Assembly: GCA_043719295.1 (NCBI GenBank)
Contig: JAYSUD010000008.1
Location: 8,216 to 72,215, forward strand
Length of the DNA stretch: 64,000 nt
Origin: a bacterium
GTDB lineage: Bacteria; Patescibacteriota; Minisyncoccia; Phycocordibacterales; UBA918
Direction of reading: 5' to 3'
Shown: piece after piece, positions 1 to 12,636 of the stretch
How the letters are laid out: every line of letters starts with the position of its first letter
How positions within the stretch are numbered: the stretch's first letter is position 1
Notes under the pieces: model-generated
What the model saw: only the letters and a program-made list of their open reading frames with translations
What the model was told of the DNA's origin: nothing
The model's database searches: none
Made by a program: the position numbers and the translations under genes

Positions 1-98
1 GTGCTGGGTTAACACAAAGTGATTTAGCAAAAAAGATTAAAACAACTCAAAGCGCCATAGCACGCATTGAAAGTGGTAAACAAAACATAAGCACCGAT

Positions 99-1460
99 AT
101 GATTAAAAAAATTAGTAAAGCACTCAATAAAAACCTTCTTACTCCAACTCCTGGTTCAATGAATCTTGAAATTCACGGTGGTAAAAAACTCGGCGGGATC
201 ATAGAGACAAACACCTCTAAAAATGGCGCAGTAGGACTTCTGTGTGCATCACTCCTTAACAAAGGAAAGACAACACTCTTGCACATGCCGAGGATTGAAG
301 AAGTCTACCGACTCATTGAGGTACTTGAGAGTATTGGTGTCAAAATTGAATGGAATGAGAACAATATCACCATCACTCCTCCGAAAGTCTATAACCTTAA
401 GAATATTGACGTTGAAGCTGCTCGAAAAACACGAAGTATTGTGATGTTTATTGGTCCGCTTATGCACCAGCTAAAAAAGTTTTCACTTCCGCAGTCAGGT
501 GGATGCAAACTTGGAAGTCGAACAGTGCGTCCACATTTCTATGCATTGGAACATTTTGGAGTACACATAGAAACAACAAACGATGCCTTTAAAGTAACCT
601 CAGAACCTGTATGTCCATCTGAAATCATATTGTACGAGTCAGGTGACACGGTCACTGAAAATGCACTCCTTGCTGCTTCGTTAACTAACGCTACAACAAC
701 CATCAAATACGCTTCTGCAAACTATATGGTTCAAGAGATGTGTGCATTCTTAATAGCTTGCGGAGTACAAATAGAAGGAGTTGGGACAACCACCCTTACC
801 GTGATAGGAGTTTCAAGTATCAATACCGACATTACCTACACACTAGCTGAAGATCCTACCGACAGTATGTTCTTTATCGCAGCTGCCATTGTCACGCACA
901 GTCCAATTACTATTACTCGTTGCCCAATTGAGTTTCTTGAACTTGAACTTCTCGTACTTGAAAAAATGGGGCTCCAATACTCAAAATCAAAAGTATATTT
1001 GTCACACAATGGCGTTACAAAACTTGTAGATCTTAAACTAAAACCAAGTAAGCTCACTGCGTCAGCTGAAAAAATCCACTCACGGCCCTACCCTGGTTTA
1101 AATGCTGACAACCTCCCTTTCTTTGCAGTTATCGCAACGCAAGCCACAGGTCAAACACTCATTCACGACTGGATGTATGAAAAGCGAGCAATTTACTTTA
1201 CCGAGCTAGACAAACTAGGTGCAGACACCGTCCTTGCAGATCCCCATCGAATTTATATCAACGGCCCAAGCAAACTGCGAGCAAATGAACTTGTCTGCCC
1301 TCCTGCGTTGCGCCCTGCTACGATACTTCTTATTGCAATGCTCGGAGCGTCAGGTCGCTCTGTCTTACGCAACATTTACAGCATCAACCGAGGCTACGAA
1401 AACCTAGTTGAACGCCTGACTTCATTAGGTGCTGAGGTACGATACTTAGAGGAGTTTTGA
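99..1460 (+). CDS. murA: UDP-N-acetylglucosamine 1-carboxyvinyltransferase (MurA). The reading frame is open from window position 3 and encodes an XRE-type HTH segment in frame upstream of the MurA domain.
   Basis: Product LEIHGGKKLGGIIETNTSKNGAVGLLCASLL... aligns with the MurA N-terminus and runs full length to YLEEF. Translation of positions 3-158 gives LTQSDLAKKIKTTQSAIARIESGKQNIS, a classic HTH_XRE, with no stop before the MurA domain. Confidence 0.9.
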   Translation: MIKKISKALNKNLLTPTPGSMNLEIHGGKKLGGIIETNTSKNGAVGLLCASLLNKGKTTLLHMPRIEEVYRLIEVLESIGVKIEWNENNITITPPKVYNLKNIDVEAARKTRSIVMFIGPLMHQLKKFSLPQSGGCKLGSRTVRPHFYALEHFGVHIETTNDAFKVTSEPVCPSEIILYESGDTVTENALLAASLTNATTTIKYASANYMVQEMCAFLIACGVQIEGVGTTTLTVIGVSSINTDITYTLAEDPTDSMFFIAAAIVTHSPITITRCPIEFLELELLVLEKMGLQYSKSKVYLSHNGVTKLVDLKLKPSKLTASAEKIHSRPYPGLNADNLPFFAVIATQATGQTLIHDWMYEKRAIYFTELDKLGADTVLADPHRIYINGPSKLRANELVCPPALRPATILLIAMLGASGRSVLRNIYSINRGYENLVERLTSLGAEVRYLEEF

Positions 1461-1600: not shown

Positions 1601-1681
1601 TTAACTCTACACTCTCGAAGTATGAGTCAATAAGAAGCTATCTTTTCTCGTTACGTAGCTATTTTGCTATACTGAACATCC

Positions 1682-3568
1682 ATGTTTGTTATTGAGGTTA
1701 TTCCCCTAAAACGAGGTATCGGTATTGAATCACTTTCCTACTATTCTGCGTTGTCATACAACGCGGGTACTATCATCTCTATTCCACTTCGAAATCAAGA
1801 GACAATGGCTGTAGTAATTGGATTTAAGCCAGTATCTGCTGCGAAAACTGCCCTTAAAACAGCAACGTTTTCACTCCGTAAACTGCAAGCACAACCTGAT
1901 GCACGAACACTTCCCCTTTCAATTATCAAAACAGCACAAAAACTTTGTCTTCAAAATCCTGCAAGTTTAGGTGCAATTTTATTTTCATTACTCCCGCCAC
2001 AGATCCGCAATGGTGAACGAATGTATCCTAAGGCAGAATCGAAGATAAATTCAGAAGATACTATTCCTAAAATATTAACGGCAATTGCATCGCATCGTTA
2101 CACTGAATACAAAAGCTGTATCCGACAAACCTTTGCCCATCGGGGGTCAGTTGTTTTTATTGTCCCTACTTCAATTGATGTGGAACACGCAAAGAAAAAA
2201 TTAGAAAGTGGGATTGAGAGTCGTGTCGTTACGTTTTCAAGTACCCATACAAAAAAGCAACTTGATGCATCATATGAGGCGTTTGAAGATTATCGACAAG
2301 CGAAGCTTTTTATTGTCACTCCAGCGTATTCGTTTTTAGACAGACACGACATTACCTCAATAATTATAGAAGGCGCTGGAAGTCAAAACTACATTATGCG
2401 AAGTCGTCCGTACTTAGACACTAAAGATGCATTAAAAATATTTGCAAAAGAAACAGGGCGTTCAATCCTACTTGCTGATGCGGTTGTTAAAACAGAAGAC
2501 GAAATCAAGCGAAGAGACGACATCTATACCACCTATAATGAACACACAATCCGTCTTGAACTCGGAGGTTTAGTCACCTTAGCTCACCATAAGAAACTTG
2601 AAGAGGGTGAGACGTTTTCACTCTGTACAGCTGAACTTAAAGAGACAATATCCCGAGTACTCTCAAACCGTGGACATGCTTTTTTGTATGCAGCGCGCAG
2701 GGGCTTGGCACCTGCAATTACGTGTTATGACTGCGGTCACGTGTTTCGCTGTCCTGATTCTGGTGCACCATACTCACTTCTTCGAACGTTTAAAGAAGAC
2801 GTAGAAGAGCGATGGTTTGTATCACACACCTCAGGCAAACGAGTACGGGCCGCTGACGTGTGCCCTAACTGTGGTGGATGGCGATTGCGGGAGCAAGGAA
2901 TTGGAATCCAGCAGGTATACGATGAGATTCGAAAAATCTTCCCAAAAATACAAATCTTCCTATTTGATCACCAAACAGCAACTACTAGTACGAAAGCAAA
3001 AAAAATCATAGCTGATTTCTATGATTCAAAAAAAGGAATCCTTATCGGTACGAATATGGTACTTCCGTATCTTCAGAAACAAGTTGATATTTCTGCAGTG
3101 ATCTCATACGAAGCAACCCGCACAGTTCCAACCTGGCGCGCTGATGAGACAATTTTTTCACTCCTTATTACACTCCGCGAACTGACGCTCAAGGATCTTG
3201 TGGTACAACTTCGAACTGAGGAAGACGAGTTACTCCAATTTGCATCAAAAGGACTTATTGATCAATTTTATTCAAACGAAATTGACGTGCGTAAAGCACT
3301 TTTGTATCCCCCGTATTCAGCATTTATTTTACTTTCCTTCAAAGGAACAAAAGATCAAACTGAAGAAATGGAAGACATGCTTGCGCATGTGCTTCAAGGC
3401 TATGAGGTTCAATTTTACAGTGCTCCCCTTTCAAATAAAAATGAAACATTACGATATGGACTCCTTCGCATTGAAGCCTCAAAATGGCCAAAAGCAGATC
3501 TTGTTGAGCGACTTCGGTCGTTACCGCCCTACATCAAAATTGAAGTCAATCCCGATCGCATAGTTTAA
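1682..3568 (+). CDS. priA: Primosomal protein N' (PriA)-like replication restart helicase with a degenerate Walker A region.
   Basis: 628 aa. PriA-like N-terminal 3' DNA-binding region and the Cys4 zinc ribbon CYDCGHVFRCPD...CPNCGG. Reads HRGSVVFIVPT where GSGKT is expected. Confidence 0.7.
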   Translation: MFVIEVIPLKRGIGIESLSYYSALSYNAGTIISIPLRNQETMAVVIGFKPVSAAKTALKTATFSLRKLQAQPDARTLPLSIIKTAQKLCLQNPASLGAILFSLLPPQIRNGERMYPKAESKINSEDTIPKILTAIASHRYTEYKSCIRQTFAHRGSVVFIVPTSIDVEHAKKKLESGIESRVVTFSSTHTKKQLDASYEAFEDYRQAKLFIVTPAYSFLDRHDITSIIIEGAGSQNYIMRSRPYLDTKDALKIFAKETGRSILLADAVVKTEDEIKRRDDIYTTYNEHTIRLELGGLVTLAHHKKLEEGETFSLCTAELKETISRVLSNRGHAFLYAARRGLAPAITCYDCGHVFRCPDSGAPYSLLRTFKEDVEERWFVSHTSGKRVRAADVCPNCGGWRLREQGIGIQQVYDEIRKIFPKIQIFLFDHQTATTSTKAKKIIADFYDSKKGILIGTNMVLPYLQKQVDISAVISYEATRTVPTWRADETIFSLLITLRELTLKDLVVQLRTEEDELLQFASKGLIDQFYSNEIDVRKALLYPPYSAFILLSFKGTKDQTEEMEDMLAHVLQGYEVQFYSAPLSNKNETLRYGLLRIEASKWPKADLVERLRSLPPYIKIEVNPDRIV

Positions 3569-4328: not shown

Positions 4329-4841
4329 TTATTCTTTATTGAACAACAACTTTAATTTCTCCAGACCCCGATGCGTTTTAACGGTAACCATATTTTTACT
4401 CTGCCCAGTTAGCAGTGCAACTTCAGCTACCGAAAGTTCCTGTACATAGCGCATGTGGACGATTGATTTGTATGATGGGGGTAATAACTCAATCATTTTA
4501 ACTGCAGACGCTCCATCGAGTTGATTTATCATTTTTGTAGATGAATCGACTCCAAGTTCAAGTCCTTTTTCAATAAGCTCTTCAAGCGAAACAGTTTTGC
4601 GCTTTCTATATTCATCAATAATCAAGCAATTTAAAATATGATACAGGAATGGTTTCATCAGATGAATTTTGCCCGTGTTGATCATATACTTCCAAGTTTT
4701 CATATACGCCTCTTGTACCAAATCATCACACAAAATATTGTCACCCACTTTAAAAAGCGCATATTTTTTGAGTTCCATCTCAAACTCGTTGTGAGCACTG
4801 ATCATGGTTAATTGTAGATCAGCTTTTTTTTGCGTATCCAT
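4329..4841 (-). CDS. RNA polymerase sigma-70 factor, ECF subfamily.
   Basis: 170 aa. Region 2 (DDLVQEAYMKTWKY) and a region 4 HTH (LSVAEVALLTGQSKNMVTVKTHRGLEKL). Confidence 0.75.
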   Translation of the reverse strand: MDTQKKADLQLTMISAHNEFEMELKKYALFKVGDNILCDDLVQEAYMKTWKYMINTGKIHLMKPFLYHILNCLIIDEYRKRKTVSLEELIEKGLELGVDSSTKMINQLDGASAVKMIELLPPSYKSIVHMRYVQELSVAEVALLTGQSKNMVTVKTHRGLEKLKLLFNKE

Positions 4842-6261: not shown

Positions 6262-8700
6262 GTGATGTCTAAAAACAGGAGCCCACACATCAATATGAAT
6301 TACAAAAATATAAAAAAGAGAGCATCACGCACAGCAAGTTTTATGCTTCTAGTAGTATCACTCATTGCACCACTAACTTCAATGAACGTAGTAATAGTAT
6401 CCGCAGAGGAGATAGAAGTGAGTGAAAATACTGCCATAGACGAATCTGCATCTGAAACGAATTTAAATACAGTGAATGTTGAGAGTTCTGAAATAGGAAG
6501 TGAGAAAACTACTACTACAACAACGGACGAAATCACTCCACACATACCAAATGCCACAAGTACAGAAATCGAGAGTTCTGAAACTACATTACAAAATGAT
6601 ACTGTAACTGCAAGTTCAACAGTTGCGATAACAACTGGAGACACCATTGCGTTAGCAAATATTCTCACAATTGCAAATACTAACTTAGTTAATTCAACCG
6701 GTACTATTATTTTTTCAAATCTAATTGAAGATCAAGTATCTCCAATTGATTTTCGAACAAACAATACAGCATCGACTTCTTGTGCGCTCGTGTACTGTGA
6801 AAAAAATTCAGGAGTTGAAGTTGCTGTTGTTAATGATGCCTACATACATAATATATTGATGATTGAAGCACAAAGTGGCGACAATAGTGTAGAGGGCACT
6901 CTGACAGAAACCTCAGGAGCAATTGTAACGGGCAATGCGTACGCAGGTCTAAACTTGGTTAATGTAGCTAATTCAAATTTTATCGATTCTCATTACCTAC
7001 TCATTACACTAAACGCGTTTGAAGATGTACATGGTGACATTATATTTCCAAGCTTAAGCAATCTTTTAAGCAATCAAGCGATGGCACTATCTCAAACAAC
7101 AGTGCAGACTAATGTAGCAACTGTTGAGAATTCAACAAACGTTACTGCAGAAACTGGTGCCAATACCTCAAACAGTTTGGTGACGGAGATTATTACAGGA
7201 CAAAGTATTGCAACAACCAATGTACTTAATTTGATTAACAGCACACTCTCAGGTGGCGAGAGTATCTCTATTTTGTTACGGGTTCATGGTACGTGGCTTG
7301 GAACAATTTTTGGAGGTGATCCGCGTCTAAACATAACCGACGCGGGTGATGGGTACTACTATATAACTTCAAATAACGTTGACACCTCAGGTCAAAATAA
7401 TTCGCTTGTAACCGGCACTAGTACTGCCTTAATACACAACGATATCAAAGTACTTGCGGGCACTGGAAATAACACACTATCCGACGTTGAGTCAGGGTTA
7501 ATTGAGACAGGAAATGCATTTTCTGGGGCAAATATTGTCAATATTGCTAACACCAATATCATCGGTAGAAATTGGACCTTAGCAATTATTAACATCTTTG
7601 GAGATTTTATTGGGAACCTTTCTTTTGGACAGCCTGATGTATGGATTGGAGAAAAAATTGCAGTACCAAAGGTTGTTCAAAAAGGTAGTGAAATCACCTA
7701 CACGTTCACGGTAACAAACAATGGTGACGCACCATCAACGCGTACACGAGTTAGTGACGCCTATGCAGCTTCAAATTTAAGCATACTTGAAAGTTCAAAT
7801 CCGTACTTACTCGACGCTGATAACAAATTGGTTTGGGAAATAGGAACTCTGCCTGCGGGAGCAACATCTTTAATTACGTACAAAGCCGTTGTAACTTCAG
7901 ATATTCCCGCAACTAACATCACAAATGTCGTTACCGTTACTTCATACGAAACGGACTTCAATGATAGCAATAACACAGATACAGGCACAGTTAAAACATC
8001 AGTGGTAGGAAATACAACTCAAGGGAGTACTGCAAAACGTGCACAGGTATCTTCTCTAACCGCGCCAGATGTTTTAGAGACAAGGGATTTCGTTCCTCCG
8101 ATGGTCACTCGACTAAACGCTATTTCACGTGTAGCCGAAAGTACTAGTGTCTCTACGCAGACACTTGTTATCAAAAATCAAAGTGAAAAAAGTATTCCAA
8201 ATATTGTCCTTCATGATTATGTAATAAGTCAAAGCGGTGCACAGATAGCAGACGAAGTCTGGTCTATTGGCACACTCCTTCCTTATGAGGAAATTACACT
8301 TAGTTATGATATTTCATTTACACCAGATGCACCCAATGGTCACTATACGCTTTCTACGGCACTTATTATGGAGGATGCCGATATATCGTTTTATGGTAAT
8401 GGTTCTATAGATGTACTCCGCAATTCCCTACCGCTTGCGGATGAAGATTCAGTTGTTTTCTTATCAACTGCAATGATAGAGAGTGTGACACCAAATGAGG
8501 ACACTATCACAGACGATGTTTTCGAGCCAACCTTTGCTTCAGCAATTGGACTTACACCAAATATTGCAGAAGCTGCAGATACAACACAATTGGCATCAGT
8601 TGCTGCATCAAAAACGAATATCCCTTTATCACTTATAATAATCTTTGGAGTAATTGGGTTTCTCGTTCTTATAAGTGCCTACCGTGAGCTTCGTGACTAA
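6262..8700 (+). CDS. Large surface protein with a DUF11-like repeat region and a C-terminal membrane anchor.
   Basis: 812 aa. N-terminal signal/TM, Thr/Ser/Asn-rich beta-type repeats, the segment ITYTFTVTNNGDAPSTRTRVSD typical of DUF11/'conserved repeat domain', and a C-terminal hydrophobic anchor IIIFGVIGFLVLISAY. Start may be Met12 at 6295. Confidence 0.6.
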   Translation: MMSKNRSPHINMNYKNIKKRASRTASFMLLVVSLIAPLTSMNVVIVSAEEIEVSENTAIDESASETNLNTVNVESSEIGSEKTTTTTTDEITPHIPNATSTEIESSETTLQNDTVTASSTVAITTGDTIALANILTIANTNLVNSTGTIIFSNLIEDQVSPIDFRTNNTASTSCALVYCEKNSGVEVAVVNDAYIHNILMIEAQSGDNSVEGTLTETSGAIVTGNAYAGLNLVNVANSNFIDSHYLLITLNAFEDVHGDIIFPSLSNLLSNQAMALSQTTVQTNVATVENSTNVTAETGANTSNSLVTEIITGQSIATTNVLNLINSTLSGGESISILLRVHGTWLGTIFGGDPRLNITDAGDGYYYITSNNVDTSGQNNSLVTGTSTALIHNDIKVLAGTGNNTLSDVESGLIETGNAFSGANIVNIANTNIIGRNWTLAIINIFGDFIGNLSFGQPDVWIGEKIAVPKVVQKGSEITYTFTVTNNGDAPSTRTRVSDAYAASNLSILESSNPYLLDADNKLVWEIGTLPAGATSLITYKAVVTSDIPATNITNVVTVTSYETDFNDSNNTDTGTVKTSVVGNTTQGSTAKRAQVSSLTAPDVLETRDFVPPMVTRLNAISRVAESTSVSTQTLVIKNQSEKSIPNIVLHDYVISQSGAQIADEVWSIGTLLPYEEITLSYDISFTPDAPNGHYTLSTALIMEDADISFYGNGSIDVLRNSLPLADEDSVVFLSTAMIESVTPNEDTITDDVFEPTFASAIGLTPNIAEAADTTQLASVAASKTNIPLSLIIIFGVIGFLVLISAYRELRD

Positions 8701-11788: not shown

Positions 11789-12116
11789 TCCGGTGTAGCT
11801 CAGCGGTAGAGCAATCGACTGTAACATTGAACAATGTTCAAAATAGCAGCCTTATCGAGAAATTGATATTGCAAACAAGGTGAATTGCTGGAACCCCCAC
11901 GACACAAGTCAGGGCAATCAGCAGCCAAGCTTTTGGAGAAATCCAATTGAAGGTCCAGAGACTATCCCTTCGGGGAGTAGAATGCTCACAAATGCATTCG
12001 AAGCGCCTTGCACCGTCAGTGTAGTAATACAACCGGTGATGATATAGTCCACGCCATACAGTAACGTATGAATAAGTGTAATCGATTGGTCGCAGGTTCG
12101 AATCCTGCCGCCGGAG
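11789..12116 (+). tRNA. tRNA-Asn (anticodon GUU) interrupted by a group I intron in the anticodon loop. No CCA is encoded.
   Basis: Exons tccggtgtagctcagcggtagagcaatcgactgt + taatcgattggtcgcaggttcgaatcctgccgccggag fold into a 72-nt cloverleaf. Acceptor TCCGGTG/CGCCGGA, U8, T-loop TTCGAAT, G73, and a 5-nt variable loop that excludes Tyr. Confidence 0.75.
11823..12078 (+). ncRNA. Group I self-splicing intron (~256 nt) within tRNA-Asn.
   Basis: CCAAGCTTTTGG (P5-like), GTCCAGAGACTA (J6/7-P7) and ATATAGTCC (P7'/J8-7) match the group I consensus. The intron ends in G. Boundaries are good to about 2 nt. Confidence 0.7.
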
Positions 12117-12132
12117 CTTTAGAATTTAGAGA

Positions 12133-12162: not shown

Positions 12163-12184
12163 AGCTCCGGCGGCAGGATTCGAA
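12163..12184 (+). repeat. Perfect inverted copy (22 nt) of the tRNA-Asn 3' end.
   Basis: agctccggcggcaggattcgaa is the exact reverse complement of the tRNA 3' end ttcgaatcctgccgccggagct. Together with the tRNA it makes a ~35-bp inverted repeat enclosing the terminator. Confidence 0.85.
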
Positions 12185-12306: not shown

Positions 12307-12636
12307 CACATGACCCGTAAAGAAACACGCACCTACGCCGATCGAGCTGAGTATATGAAACTCGCTGTCATTAAACGTCGCAAAAAAGTGCGTGACATGG
12401 CACTTGAATACAAAGGTGGAGTCTGCCAAATCTGTAGATATAGTAAAAGTAAACGGGCACTCTCCTTTCATCACATCAATCCCAAAACAAAAGAATTTGG
12501 TATTTCATACAGAGGCTTTACTCGATCATGGGACAAGACAAAAGCAGAACTCGATAAATGCATTCTGCTTTGCATGAACTGTCATATGGAGATACACGAT
12601 GGAATTACAAAGTTACCAGAACTTTGCATTACCTGA
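12307..12636 (+). CDS. HNH endonuclease (zinc-finger HNH); likely a homing-type endonuclease tied to the adjacent intron-containing tRNA.
   Basis: MTRKETRTYADRAEY...CQICRY...SFHHINPK...CMNCHMEIHDG: HNH motif with CxxC pairs. Start taken at the internal Met after the promoter-like box. Confidence 0.7.
   Translation, partial: HMTRKETRTYADRAEYMKLAVIKRRKKVRDMALEYKGGVCQICRYSKSKRALSFHHINPKTKEFGISYRGFTRSWDKTKAELDKCILLCMNCHMEIHDGITKLPELCIT

Follow-up and report, generated by a model that had tools for sequence, protein, structure and literature searches.

Does an enzyme of cell-wall synthesis that carries its own DNA-binding domain also control its own gene? The question is raised by the gene at the left edge of the DNA analyzed here, a window of 64,000 nucleotides (positions 8,216 to 72,215 of contig JAYSUD010000008.1, assembly GCA_043719295.1) from a bacterium of the Patescibacteriota (UBA918). 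The gene, called HTH-MurA below, encodes a helix-turn-helix (HTH) domain joined to MurA, which catalyzes the first committed step of peptidoglycan synthesis and is targeted by fosfomycin. The reading that we favor, at a probability of roughly 0.68 on comparative evidence, is that the product would be a bifunctional protein, MurA enzyme and autorepressor at once, in the manner of BirA and PutA.

The first-pass annotation had described an XRE-type HTH domain encoded in frame with MurA, with no stop between them, in a gene truncated by the window, and this description was borne out. Frame 3 of the plus strand is open from base 3 to the codon at 1455-1457, and its product reads AGLTQSDLAKKIKTTQSAIARIESGKQNISTDMIKKISKALNKNLLTPTPGSMNLEIHGGKKLGG...; the three peptides quoted earlier (GLTQSDLAKKIKTTQSAIARIESGKQNISTDMIKKISKAL, LTPTPGS and MNLEIHGGKKLGG) are each present exactly in this frame, and ATGs do stand at 99 and 159. 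The window lacks the first 14 codons (MEHIGSRITLVRES) and everything upstream of them, and the missing residues were supplied by a public protein, P0001, which has 499 amino acids and is 100% identical to the window product. The domain search proposed at that time found both domains above their cut-offs: HTH_3 (PF01381) at residues 2-45 of the window product (E 2.3e-13, 50.4 bits against a cut-off of 23), and EPSP_synthase (PF00275) at residues 58-472 (E 2.2e-42, 145.7 bits against 22.8), the latter spanning positions 2-417 of the 417 in the model.

The fusion is real and conserved, and is not an assembly artefact. Both Pfam domains were found in 120/120 of the best protein clusters (90% identity level, 77-100% identical to the query), most of them 498-516 amino acids long; a few entries of 483 amino acids have a start called later. 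This architecture of about 499 amino acids throughout the best clusters leaves no place for an upstream stop or frameshift, which the first-pass annotation had named as a possible refutation. A scan with one genome per GTDB species kept 80 loci (568 kb in total), 78 of which contain the full-length fusion; the remaining two are L081, cut by a contig end, and L084, a MurA without the HTH domain. The record titles name Kaiserbacteria, Paceibacteria, Parcubacteria, Nomurabacteria and Minisyncoccia, all belonging to the Patescibacteria, or candidate phyla radiation (CPR). Among 77 species, the mean pairwise amino-acid identity is 67% in the HTH domain and 76% in the MurA domain, the ratios of nonsynonymous to synonymous differences (pN/pS) are 0.29 and 0.22, respectively, with synonymous sites saturated (pS ~0.8), and purifying selection acts on both domains.

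The N-terminal domain belongs to the XRE/Cro-C1 type, with a Pfam model above its cut-off, four predicted helices and the recognition-helix motif. The AlphaFold2 (AF2) model of the protein (predicted local distance difference test score, pLDDT, 88; predicted template modeling score, pTM, 0.88) places these helices at residues 4-14, 19-26, 30-38 and 45-55, followed by a linker of lower confidence and the MurA fold. The motif TQ..LA...TTQSA.AR.E.G.QN is invariant or nearly so, and in 61 clusters the residues T18, Q19, T29, Q30, S31, A32, A34, R35, E37, G39 and N42 do not vary. The nearest stand-alone relatives of this domain are small antitoxin-like XRE proteins. The protein itself is not a type II toxin–antitoxin (TA) antitoxin: it has 499 amino acids, its neighbors are mreB (in the relatives) and a priA-like gene, and the HTH domain and the operator alone are held in common.

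The second domain is predicted to be catalytically equipped for transfer of the enolpyruvyl group of phosphoenolpyruvate (PEP) to UDP-N-acetylglucosamine (UDP-GlcNAc). It matched the NCBIfam family NF006873 (UDP-GlcNAc 1-carboxyvinyltransferase) with 314.4 bits against a cut-off of 297, and its sequence is 33-35% identical to solved MurAs (phmmer; 5ujs, E 3e-50). In Foldseek comparison with solved MurAs, the model reached target-normalized TM-scores of 0.85-0.93 (E ~1e-38) and has the two-lobed inside-out α/β barrel. Catalysis by MurA involves Lys22, Arg91, Cys115 (or Asp), Arg120, Asp305, Asp369, Arg371 and Arg397 in E. coli numbering; the equivalents of seven of these, K87, R158, C182, R187, D383, R451 and R477 (for K22, R91, C115, R120, D305, R371 and R397), are present and invariant. 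The locus is conserved too: a divergent mreB lies upstream in roughly 70 of 76 classified loci and a priA-like gene downstream, and L084, the orthologue without the fusion, stands at the same mreB-murA-priA position. Because of this shared position, HTH-MurA is most likely the housekeeping murA of the clade.

The upstream DNA of the relatives contains a candidate operator. Alignment showed that nearly all of them carry (T)ATAGC-ATATAT-GCTAT(A), a palindrome of 16-18 bp with the form (T)ATAGC-N6-GCTAT(A), whose half-site centers are 11 bp apart. Exact copies of ATAGC-N6-GCTAT number 76 in the 568 kb, all of them upstream of an HTH-MurA gene, 75 within 200 nt and one at -270; none was found away from such a gene in the 568 kb. 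A position table of 77 sites showed that the right half leads into an extended -10 box, TGCTATA(C/T)T, that the palindrome mostly ends 9-14 nt before the ATG, and that there is no conserved -35 box, the flanking intergenic positions being random. Because the palindrome and the -10 box lie so close to the ATG, the transcript would start at the ATG of the HTH domain with hardly any leader or none; this box ends 6-11 nt ahead of the first HTH ATG in the relatives, so that this codon is most likely the translation start. At 42 loci, the promoters of the priA-like gene have the -10 consensus TTTGCTATA(C/A)T, 8-10 nt before the ATG, without an ATAGC left half, which argues that the left half-site is specific to the HTH-MurA gene.

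The genes examined in these Paceibacteria (L001-L084; window 1640-1684) share this kind of promoter: they have the extended -10 box TTTGCTATA(C/A)T ending ~8-11 nt before the ATG and no conserved -35 box, and a Shine-Dalgarno (SD) sequence is usually absent, pointing to leaderless or near-leaderless mRNAs.

Other explanations of the palindrome were tried and rejected. It is not a local promoter type, since the priA-like promoters share the -10 box and not the ATAGC, and no other exact site exists in the 568 kb. As a pair of back-to-back -10 boxes serving mreB and murA it fails because the critical sixth hexamer position on the minus strand is unconserved. This divergent reading is also contradicted by -10-like boxes seen by eye nearer the mreB ATG, which is 40-100 nt from the palindrome, and by the palindrome being kept where the upstream gene is co-directional or not mreB (L065, L074). 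Within the window, the single hit for a second operator is GTAGCTATTTTGCTAT at 1655-1670, with one mismatch; the ATG of the priA-like gene (1682-3568) follows it by 11 nt, its right half forms the extended -10 box of that gene, and it was not conserved at the priA-like gene in 41 relatives. Chance alone would give about 1.5 such hits, and we regard it as a promoter plus chance.

The presence of the palindrome follows that of the HTH domain. No copy lies upstream of L084, where the HTH domain is lacking, or upstream of P0125 (locus L216), whose HTH motif is degenerate and which has an ordinary TTGACA-N17-TAATTT promoter. We also traced the 18-mer TATAGCATATATGCTATA in metagenome contigs and scanned up to 1 kb downstream of it for the helix pattern T[KT]QS[AV][IV][AS]R[LIM]E. 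The results showed an XRE recognition helix near 35 of the 77 sites that were not close to a contig end, compared to 0 of 637 control positions on the same contigs. Across all 122 sites, 50 had the helix, and in 26 of these it was TKQSVISRLE in a small open reading frame (ORF); the examples examined were XRE antitoxins, some of them encoded after a toxin gene of the Gp49 type (PF05973). A further eight sites lie ahead of HTH-MurA genes whose catalytic motifs are intact. Two unrelated gene contexts thus pair this HTH subfamily with one DNA site, which is the best available evidence that the HTH domain reads ATAGC-N6-GCTAT, as far as comparison of sequences can tell.

A family search of 1.8 billion representative proteins extended this picture. 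Fused proteins with an intact active site are found in this clade, in P0121 from a cultured Nonomuraea and in P0125, while P0122, P0123 and P0126 are unfused. The 90% cluster of P0121 has 246 members, which RefSeq names MurA or 'helix-turn-helix domain-containing protein'. Palindromes of the same 5-N6-5 design lie just upstream of the start in distant fused lineages of 32-54% identity (Table 1), and none of this type was found upstream of L089 and L215, which represent two other lineages. A recognition code by which a TT or TK helix would read ATAGC and a TS helix ATATC was considered and abandoned: it fits L086, L090 and L213 and fails for L214 and for L085 (TS helix, ATCTC). Seven fused paralogues (P0130, P0133, P0140, P0141, P0142, P0240 and P0266) keep the HTH domain and have lost the Cys115 loop, Arg91, Arg120 and Arg371, and most of them have lost Arg397 as well. 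Three of these pseudo-enzymes (P0130, P0133 and P0140) could be assigned to a contig, where they are divergent to or adjoin genuine murA, murB, ddl and Mur-ligase genes, the genuine murA neighbors having the loop PGGC.LG.R. In L086 and L214, the palindrome lies in the intergenic region shared with a divergent murA; in L213, this region faces a gene of 164 amino acids, a Mur ligase gene and murA. Since pseudo-enzymes and palindrome beside mur genes form the classic layout of a pathway regulator, a regulatory role of the HTH domain across the family is indicated, and the arrangement suggests that these paralogues are a candidate new transcription-factor family, in which a MurA-like domain would be the sensor.

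A separate observation concerns the actinomycete homologue: in Nonomuraea sp. NEAU-A123 (JAHFZZ010000002.1; L085, 3001-4530), the 54%-identical HTH-MurA gene with intact catalytic residues lies beside a phage-type integrase gene. This suggests horizontal spread.

In the mechanism that we propose, two HTH domains would bind the two half-sites, whose 11-bp distance is one helical turn. The bound domains would occlude the -10 box and shut out RNA polymerase, the gene would be repressed by its own product, and MurA dosage would thereby be under negative autoregulation. Going by the parallel of BirA, PutA and NadR, the MurA domain possibly supplies dimerization, ligand dependence or both, and occupancy of the operator may be tuned by the open/closed, ligand-bound state of MurA (UDP-GlcNAc, PEP or UDP-N-acetylmuramic acid, UDP-MurNAc). 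Such ligand-switched control is a tentative proposal, less probable than autorepression itself; an indirect hint of it is that the dead paralogues beside mur genes have kept the MurA fold. A protein bound 40-100 nt upstream of the divergent mreB could affect that gene also, and the cassette of HTH domain and operator appears to share ancestry with the Gp49/XRE TA operons. The joint reading, in which an enzyme that is also a metabolite-sensing transcription factor acts as a homeostat, affects mreB, gave rise to pseudo-enzyme offshoots and took its HTH domain and operator from a TA operon, is possible, though we hold it to be doubtful.

Several points tell against a bifunctional autorepressor. 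The functional account as a whole is comparative inference. The promoter of the gene lies outside the window, and the operator was read from relatives of at most 83% protein identity. Its right half coincides with the general extended -10 consensus, so that the left half and the spacing are the independent evidence. Of the 77 metagenomic palindromes, 42 have no such HTH domain nearby, and a different XRE protein could bind the palindrome. On the enzyme side, the stricter equivalog TIGR01072 scored 300.2 against a cut-off of 392.7; the equivalent of Asp369 is Ala449 (motif PPALRP) throughout the clade, a substitution that may bear on catalysis or on fosfomycin sensitivity; and a second murA is possible elsewhere in these genomes. 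MurA enzymes are usually described as monomers, and the proposed binding would take two HTH domains.

Two alternatives were weighed, both of which we consider unlikely. One is that the HTH domain is an inert remnant and the palindrome a mere promoter feature or the site of another XRE protein: besides the shared -10 consensus, there are TA antitoxins with the same palindrome, and these could act in trans. Against this, the pN/pS of the HTH domain is low with synonymous sites saturated, its recognition residues are invariant, the left half-site occurs solely at the HTH-MurA gene in the 568 kb, and the palindrome was lost in the two relatives without an intact HTH domain (L084 and L216). The other is that the protein is only a transcription factor in this clade as well, its MurA fold being a ligand sensor and the real MurA being encoded elsewhere. 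The distant paralogues are exactly so, with dead catalytic sites beside a genuine murA, and Ala449 and the missed TIGR01072 cut-off point the same way. However, every other catalytic residue is invariant, the MurA part is better conserved than the HTH domain, an unfused orthologue stands at the same locus, and PPALRP, with Ala at the Asp369 position, also occurs in unfused CPR MurAs such as P0122 and in the unfused relatives P0123 and P0126; no second MurA-like ORF was evident in the 64-kb window, as judged solely from the list of ORFs and from a small number of Pfam scans.

A third alternative, somewhat less probable again, starts from RodZ, which binds MreB through an XRE-type HTH domain. 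The HTH domain of HTH-MurA would then make contacts with protein, not with DNA, and anchor MurA to MreB filaments, which would explain the divergent mreB in most of the classified loci. The Pfam evidence speaks for another type of domain, HTH_19, HTH_31 and HTH_26 being matched besides HTH_3 and the RodZ-type HTH_25 (PF13413) giving no match at E <= 0.01. Moreover, the canonical DNA-recognition motif TQ..LA...TTQSAIARIE.G is invariant, and the palindrome goes with the HTH domain even where mreB is missing, as in the TA operons and in L065 and L074 with their other neighbors. The idea that the junction was created artificially by assembly or a frameshift, or that the two domains are made separately from an internal start, has next to nothing left in its favor: a few database genes are split or fragmented (P0271-P0276, L091, L092), but the fusion exists in hundreds of independent assemblies, the split examples, including the short HTH-only entries P0271-P0276 that might be taken for separate proteins, represent contig ends or genes broken in several places, and the Met67 codon (window 159), one of two at which the first-pass annotation had advised looking for an internal ribosome-binding site, is ATG, GTG or TTG in 31/77 species (otherwise GTC, GTT, GTA, CTC and similar) with an SD-like 4-mer ahead of it in 1/77, so that neither start codon nor SD sequence is conserved.

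The architecture is already present in public databases under automatic names, and no paper describing an HTH-MurA fusion was found in the full-text literature searched. Conceptually, a bifunctional autorepressor of this kind adds a new variant to the enzyme-repressor fusions, a class already known; its novelty lies in MurA as the enzyme partner, the XRE module with an operator of TA type, and the derived pseudo-enzymes as candidate regulators of mur genes. If it is true, a MurA equipped with a DNA-binding domain and an operator of its own would set the flux of cell-wall precursors in a new and very economical way, in a major uncultured bacterial radiation with few transcription factors. If ligand switching also holds, minimal-genome CPR bacteria would possess a one-protein homeostat of precursor flux. 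The locus would further be a clean example of a TA cassette of HTH domain and operator re-used by a housekeeping gene. The cultivable Nonomuraea homologue (54% identity, intact catalytic residues) makes the idea directly testable.

Table 1. Positions of the HTH-MurA features in the window, and related features at other loci. Residue numbers are those of the full 499-residue protein.
Feature	Position	Strand	Basis or remark
HTH-MurA gene, 3' 485 codons and stop	3..1460	+	Open frame; match to P0001 (499 aa, amino acids); predicted promoter/operator just left of the window
XRE/Cro-C1 type HTH domain, residues 15-55	3..125	+	Pfam HTH_3; AF2 helices; invariant residues
HTH helix 2	15-38	+	
HTH recognition helix TTQSAIARI	48-74	+	
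HTH helix 4	93-125	+	
Linker NKNLLTPTPGSM, 12 residues, 56-67, ending in a non-conserved internal Met at 159-161	126..161	+	pLDDT ~70
MurA (UDP-N-acetylglucosamine 1-carboxyvinyltransferase) domain, residues 68-499	162..1457	+	PF00275; NF006873; phmmer; Foldseek
Lys87 codon, equivalent of E. coli MurA Lys22	219..221	+	Alignments; invariant
Cys182 codon in the loop GGCKLGSR, equivalent of catalytic, fosfomycin-targeted E. coli MurA Cys115	504..506	+	Alignment to PDB MurAs; column comparison; invariant
Ala449 codon within PPALRPA (1338-1358)	1347-1349	+	Position arithmetic
Stop codon TGA	1458..1460	+	Open-frame reading
HTH plus MurA-like pseudo-enzyme paralogue, L086	3001-4503		
HTH plus MurA-like pseudo-enzyme paralogue, L213	3001-4506		
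HTH plus MurA-like pseudo-enzyme paralogue, L214	3001-4530		
Palindrome of L085 (Nonomuraea), ATCTCATATGTGAGAT			ATCTC..GAGAT
Palindrome of L086 and L213, ATATCATATATGATAT			ATATC..GATAT
Palindrome of L090, ATATCAGATATGATAT			ATATC..GATAT
Palindrome of L214, ATAACATATATGCTAT			ATAAC..GCTAT

Further features of the window were recorded apart from the fusion. The spacer after the murA stop (1461-1681) has a folding energy of -78 kcal/mol (z = -6.6 relative to shuffled sequences) and contains a nearly perfect hairpin at 1497-1586 with arms of ~40 nt (1522-1537 pairs with 1553-1568); it has no T-run after it, no Rfam family and no second copy in the window, and it may serve as a terminator-like element or for processing. 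A small sigma factor of the extracytoplasmic function (ECF) type (Sigma70_r2 and r4_2) is encoded at 4329-4841 on the minus strand, ~3 kb downstream of murA. At ~11790-12118 lies a tRNA gene, missed by ARAGORN, whose anticodon loop is interrupted by a group I intron (Rfam RF00028, 80 bits, 11828-12071). The 3' end of this gene is repeated in inverted orientation (12097-12117 and 12164-12184) across a terminator-like hairpin, and the inverted repeat is followed by a free-standing ORF for an HNH endonuclease of 108 amino acids (12310-12636; Pfam HNH, 24.5 bits against 21.4). The inverted repeat and the HNH ORF may be the remnant of a homing or integration event.

Known systems offer four comparisons. 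BirA is a biotin ligase with a winged HTH domain, PutA joins a ribbon-helix-helix domain to proline dehydrogenase, and NadR joins an HTH domain to nicotinamide mononucleotide adenylyltransferase. Like them, HTH-MurA has a catalytic and an N-terminal DNA-binding domain in one polypeptide, and by analogy its palindrome, which overlaps the promoter of the own or pathway gene, would bring the state of enzyme or metabolite to bear on transcription as feedback. HTH-MurA differs from them both in its enzyme (MurA, of the EPSP-synthase fold) and in its type of DNA-binding domain (XRE/Cro-C1), and ligand switching and dimerization are established for BirA and PutA whereas for HTH-MurA they are a hypothesis only. 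With the canonical MurA of E. coli, E. cloacae and Gram-positive bacteria (MurAA), the protein shares the fold (TM ~0.9), the Cys115 loop and six other catalytic equivalents; it differs in ~66 extra N-terminal residues (HTH domain and linker), in Ala at the Asp369 position and in its sequence, with 33-35% identity. The known control of MurA is post-translational, through proteolysis by ClpCP/ReoM/PrkA and feedback inhibition by UDP-MurNAc, and to our knowledge it uses no built-in DNA-binding domain.

RodZ is likewise a cell-wall and morphogenesis protein with an XRE-type HTH domain and a gene linked to mreB. In contrast to RodZ, HTH-MurA lacks a match to HTH_25, its HTH domain leads directly into the MurA fold with no transmembrane segment apparent in the AF2 model (read from the model, no transmembrane predictor being used), and a DNA palindrome is present. 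The closest likeness on the DNA side is to the antitoxins of the Gp49 (PF05973, HigB/RelE-like) TA operons. Their recognition helix is nearly identical (TKQSVISRLESG compared to TTQSAIARIESG), and the same palindrome, TATAGCATATATGCTATA, stands a few to some tens of nucleotides upstream of the first ORF, and further away if the HTH gene is not the first. Unlike these antitoxins, HTH-MurA has no toxin partner, an enzyme of 433 amino acids takes the place of the C-terminal part of the antitoxin, and the neighbors are mreB and priA, both housekeeping genes.

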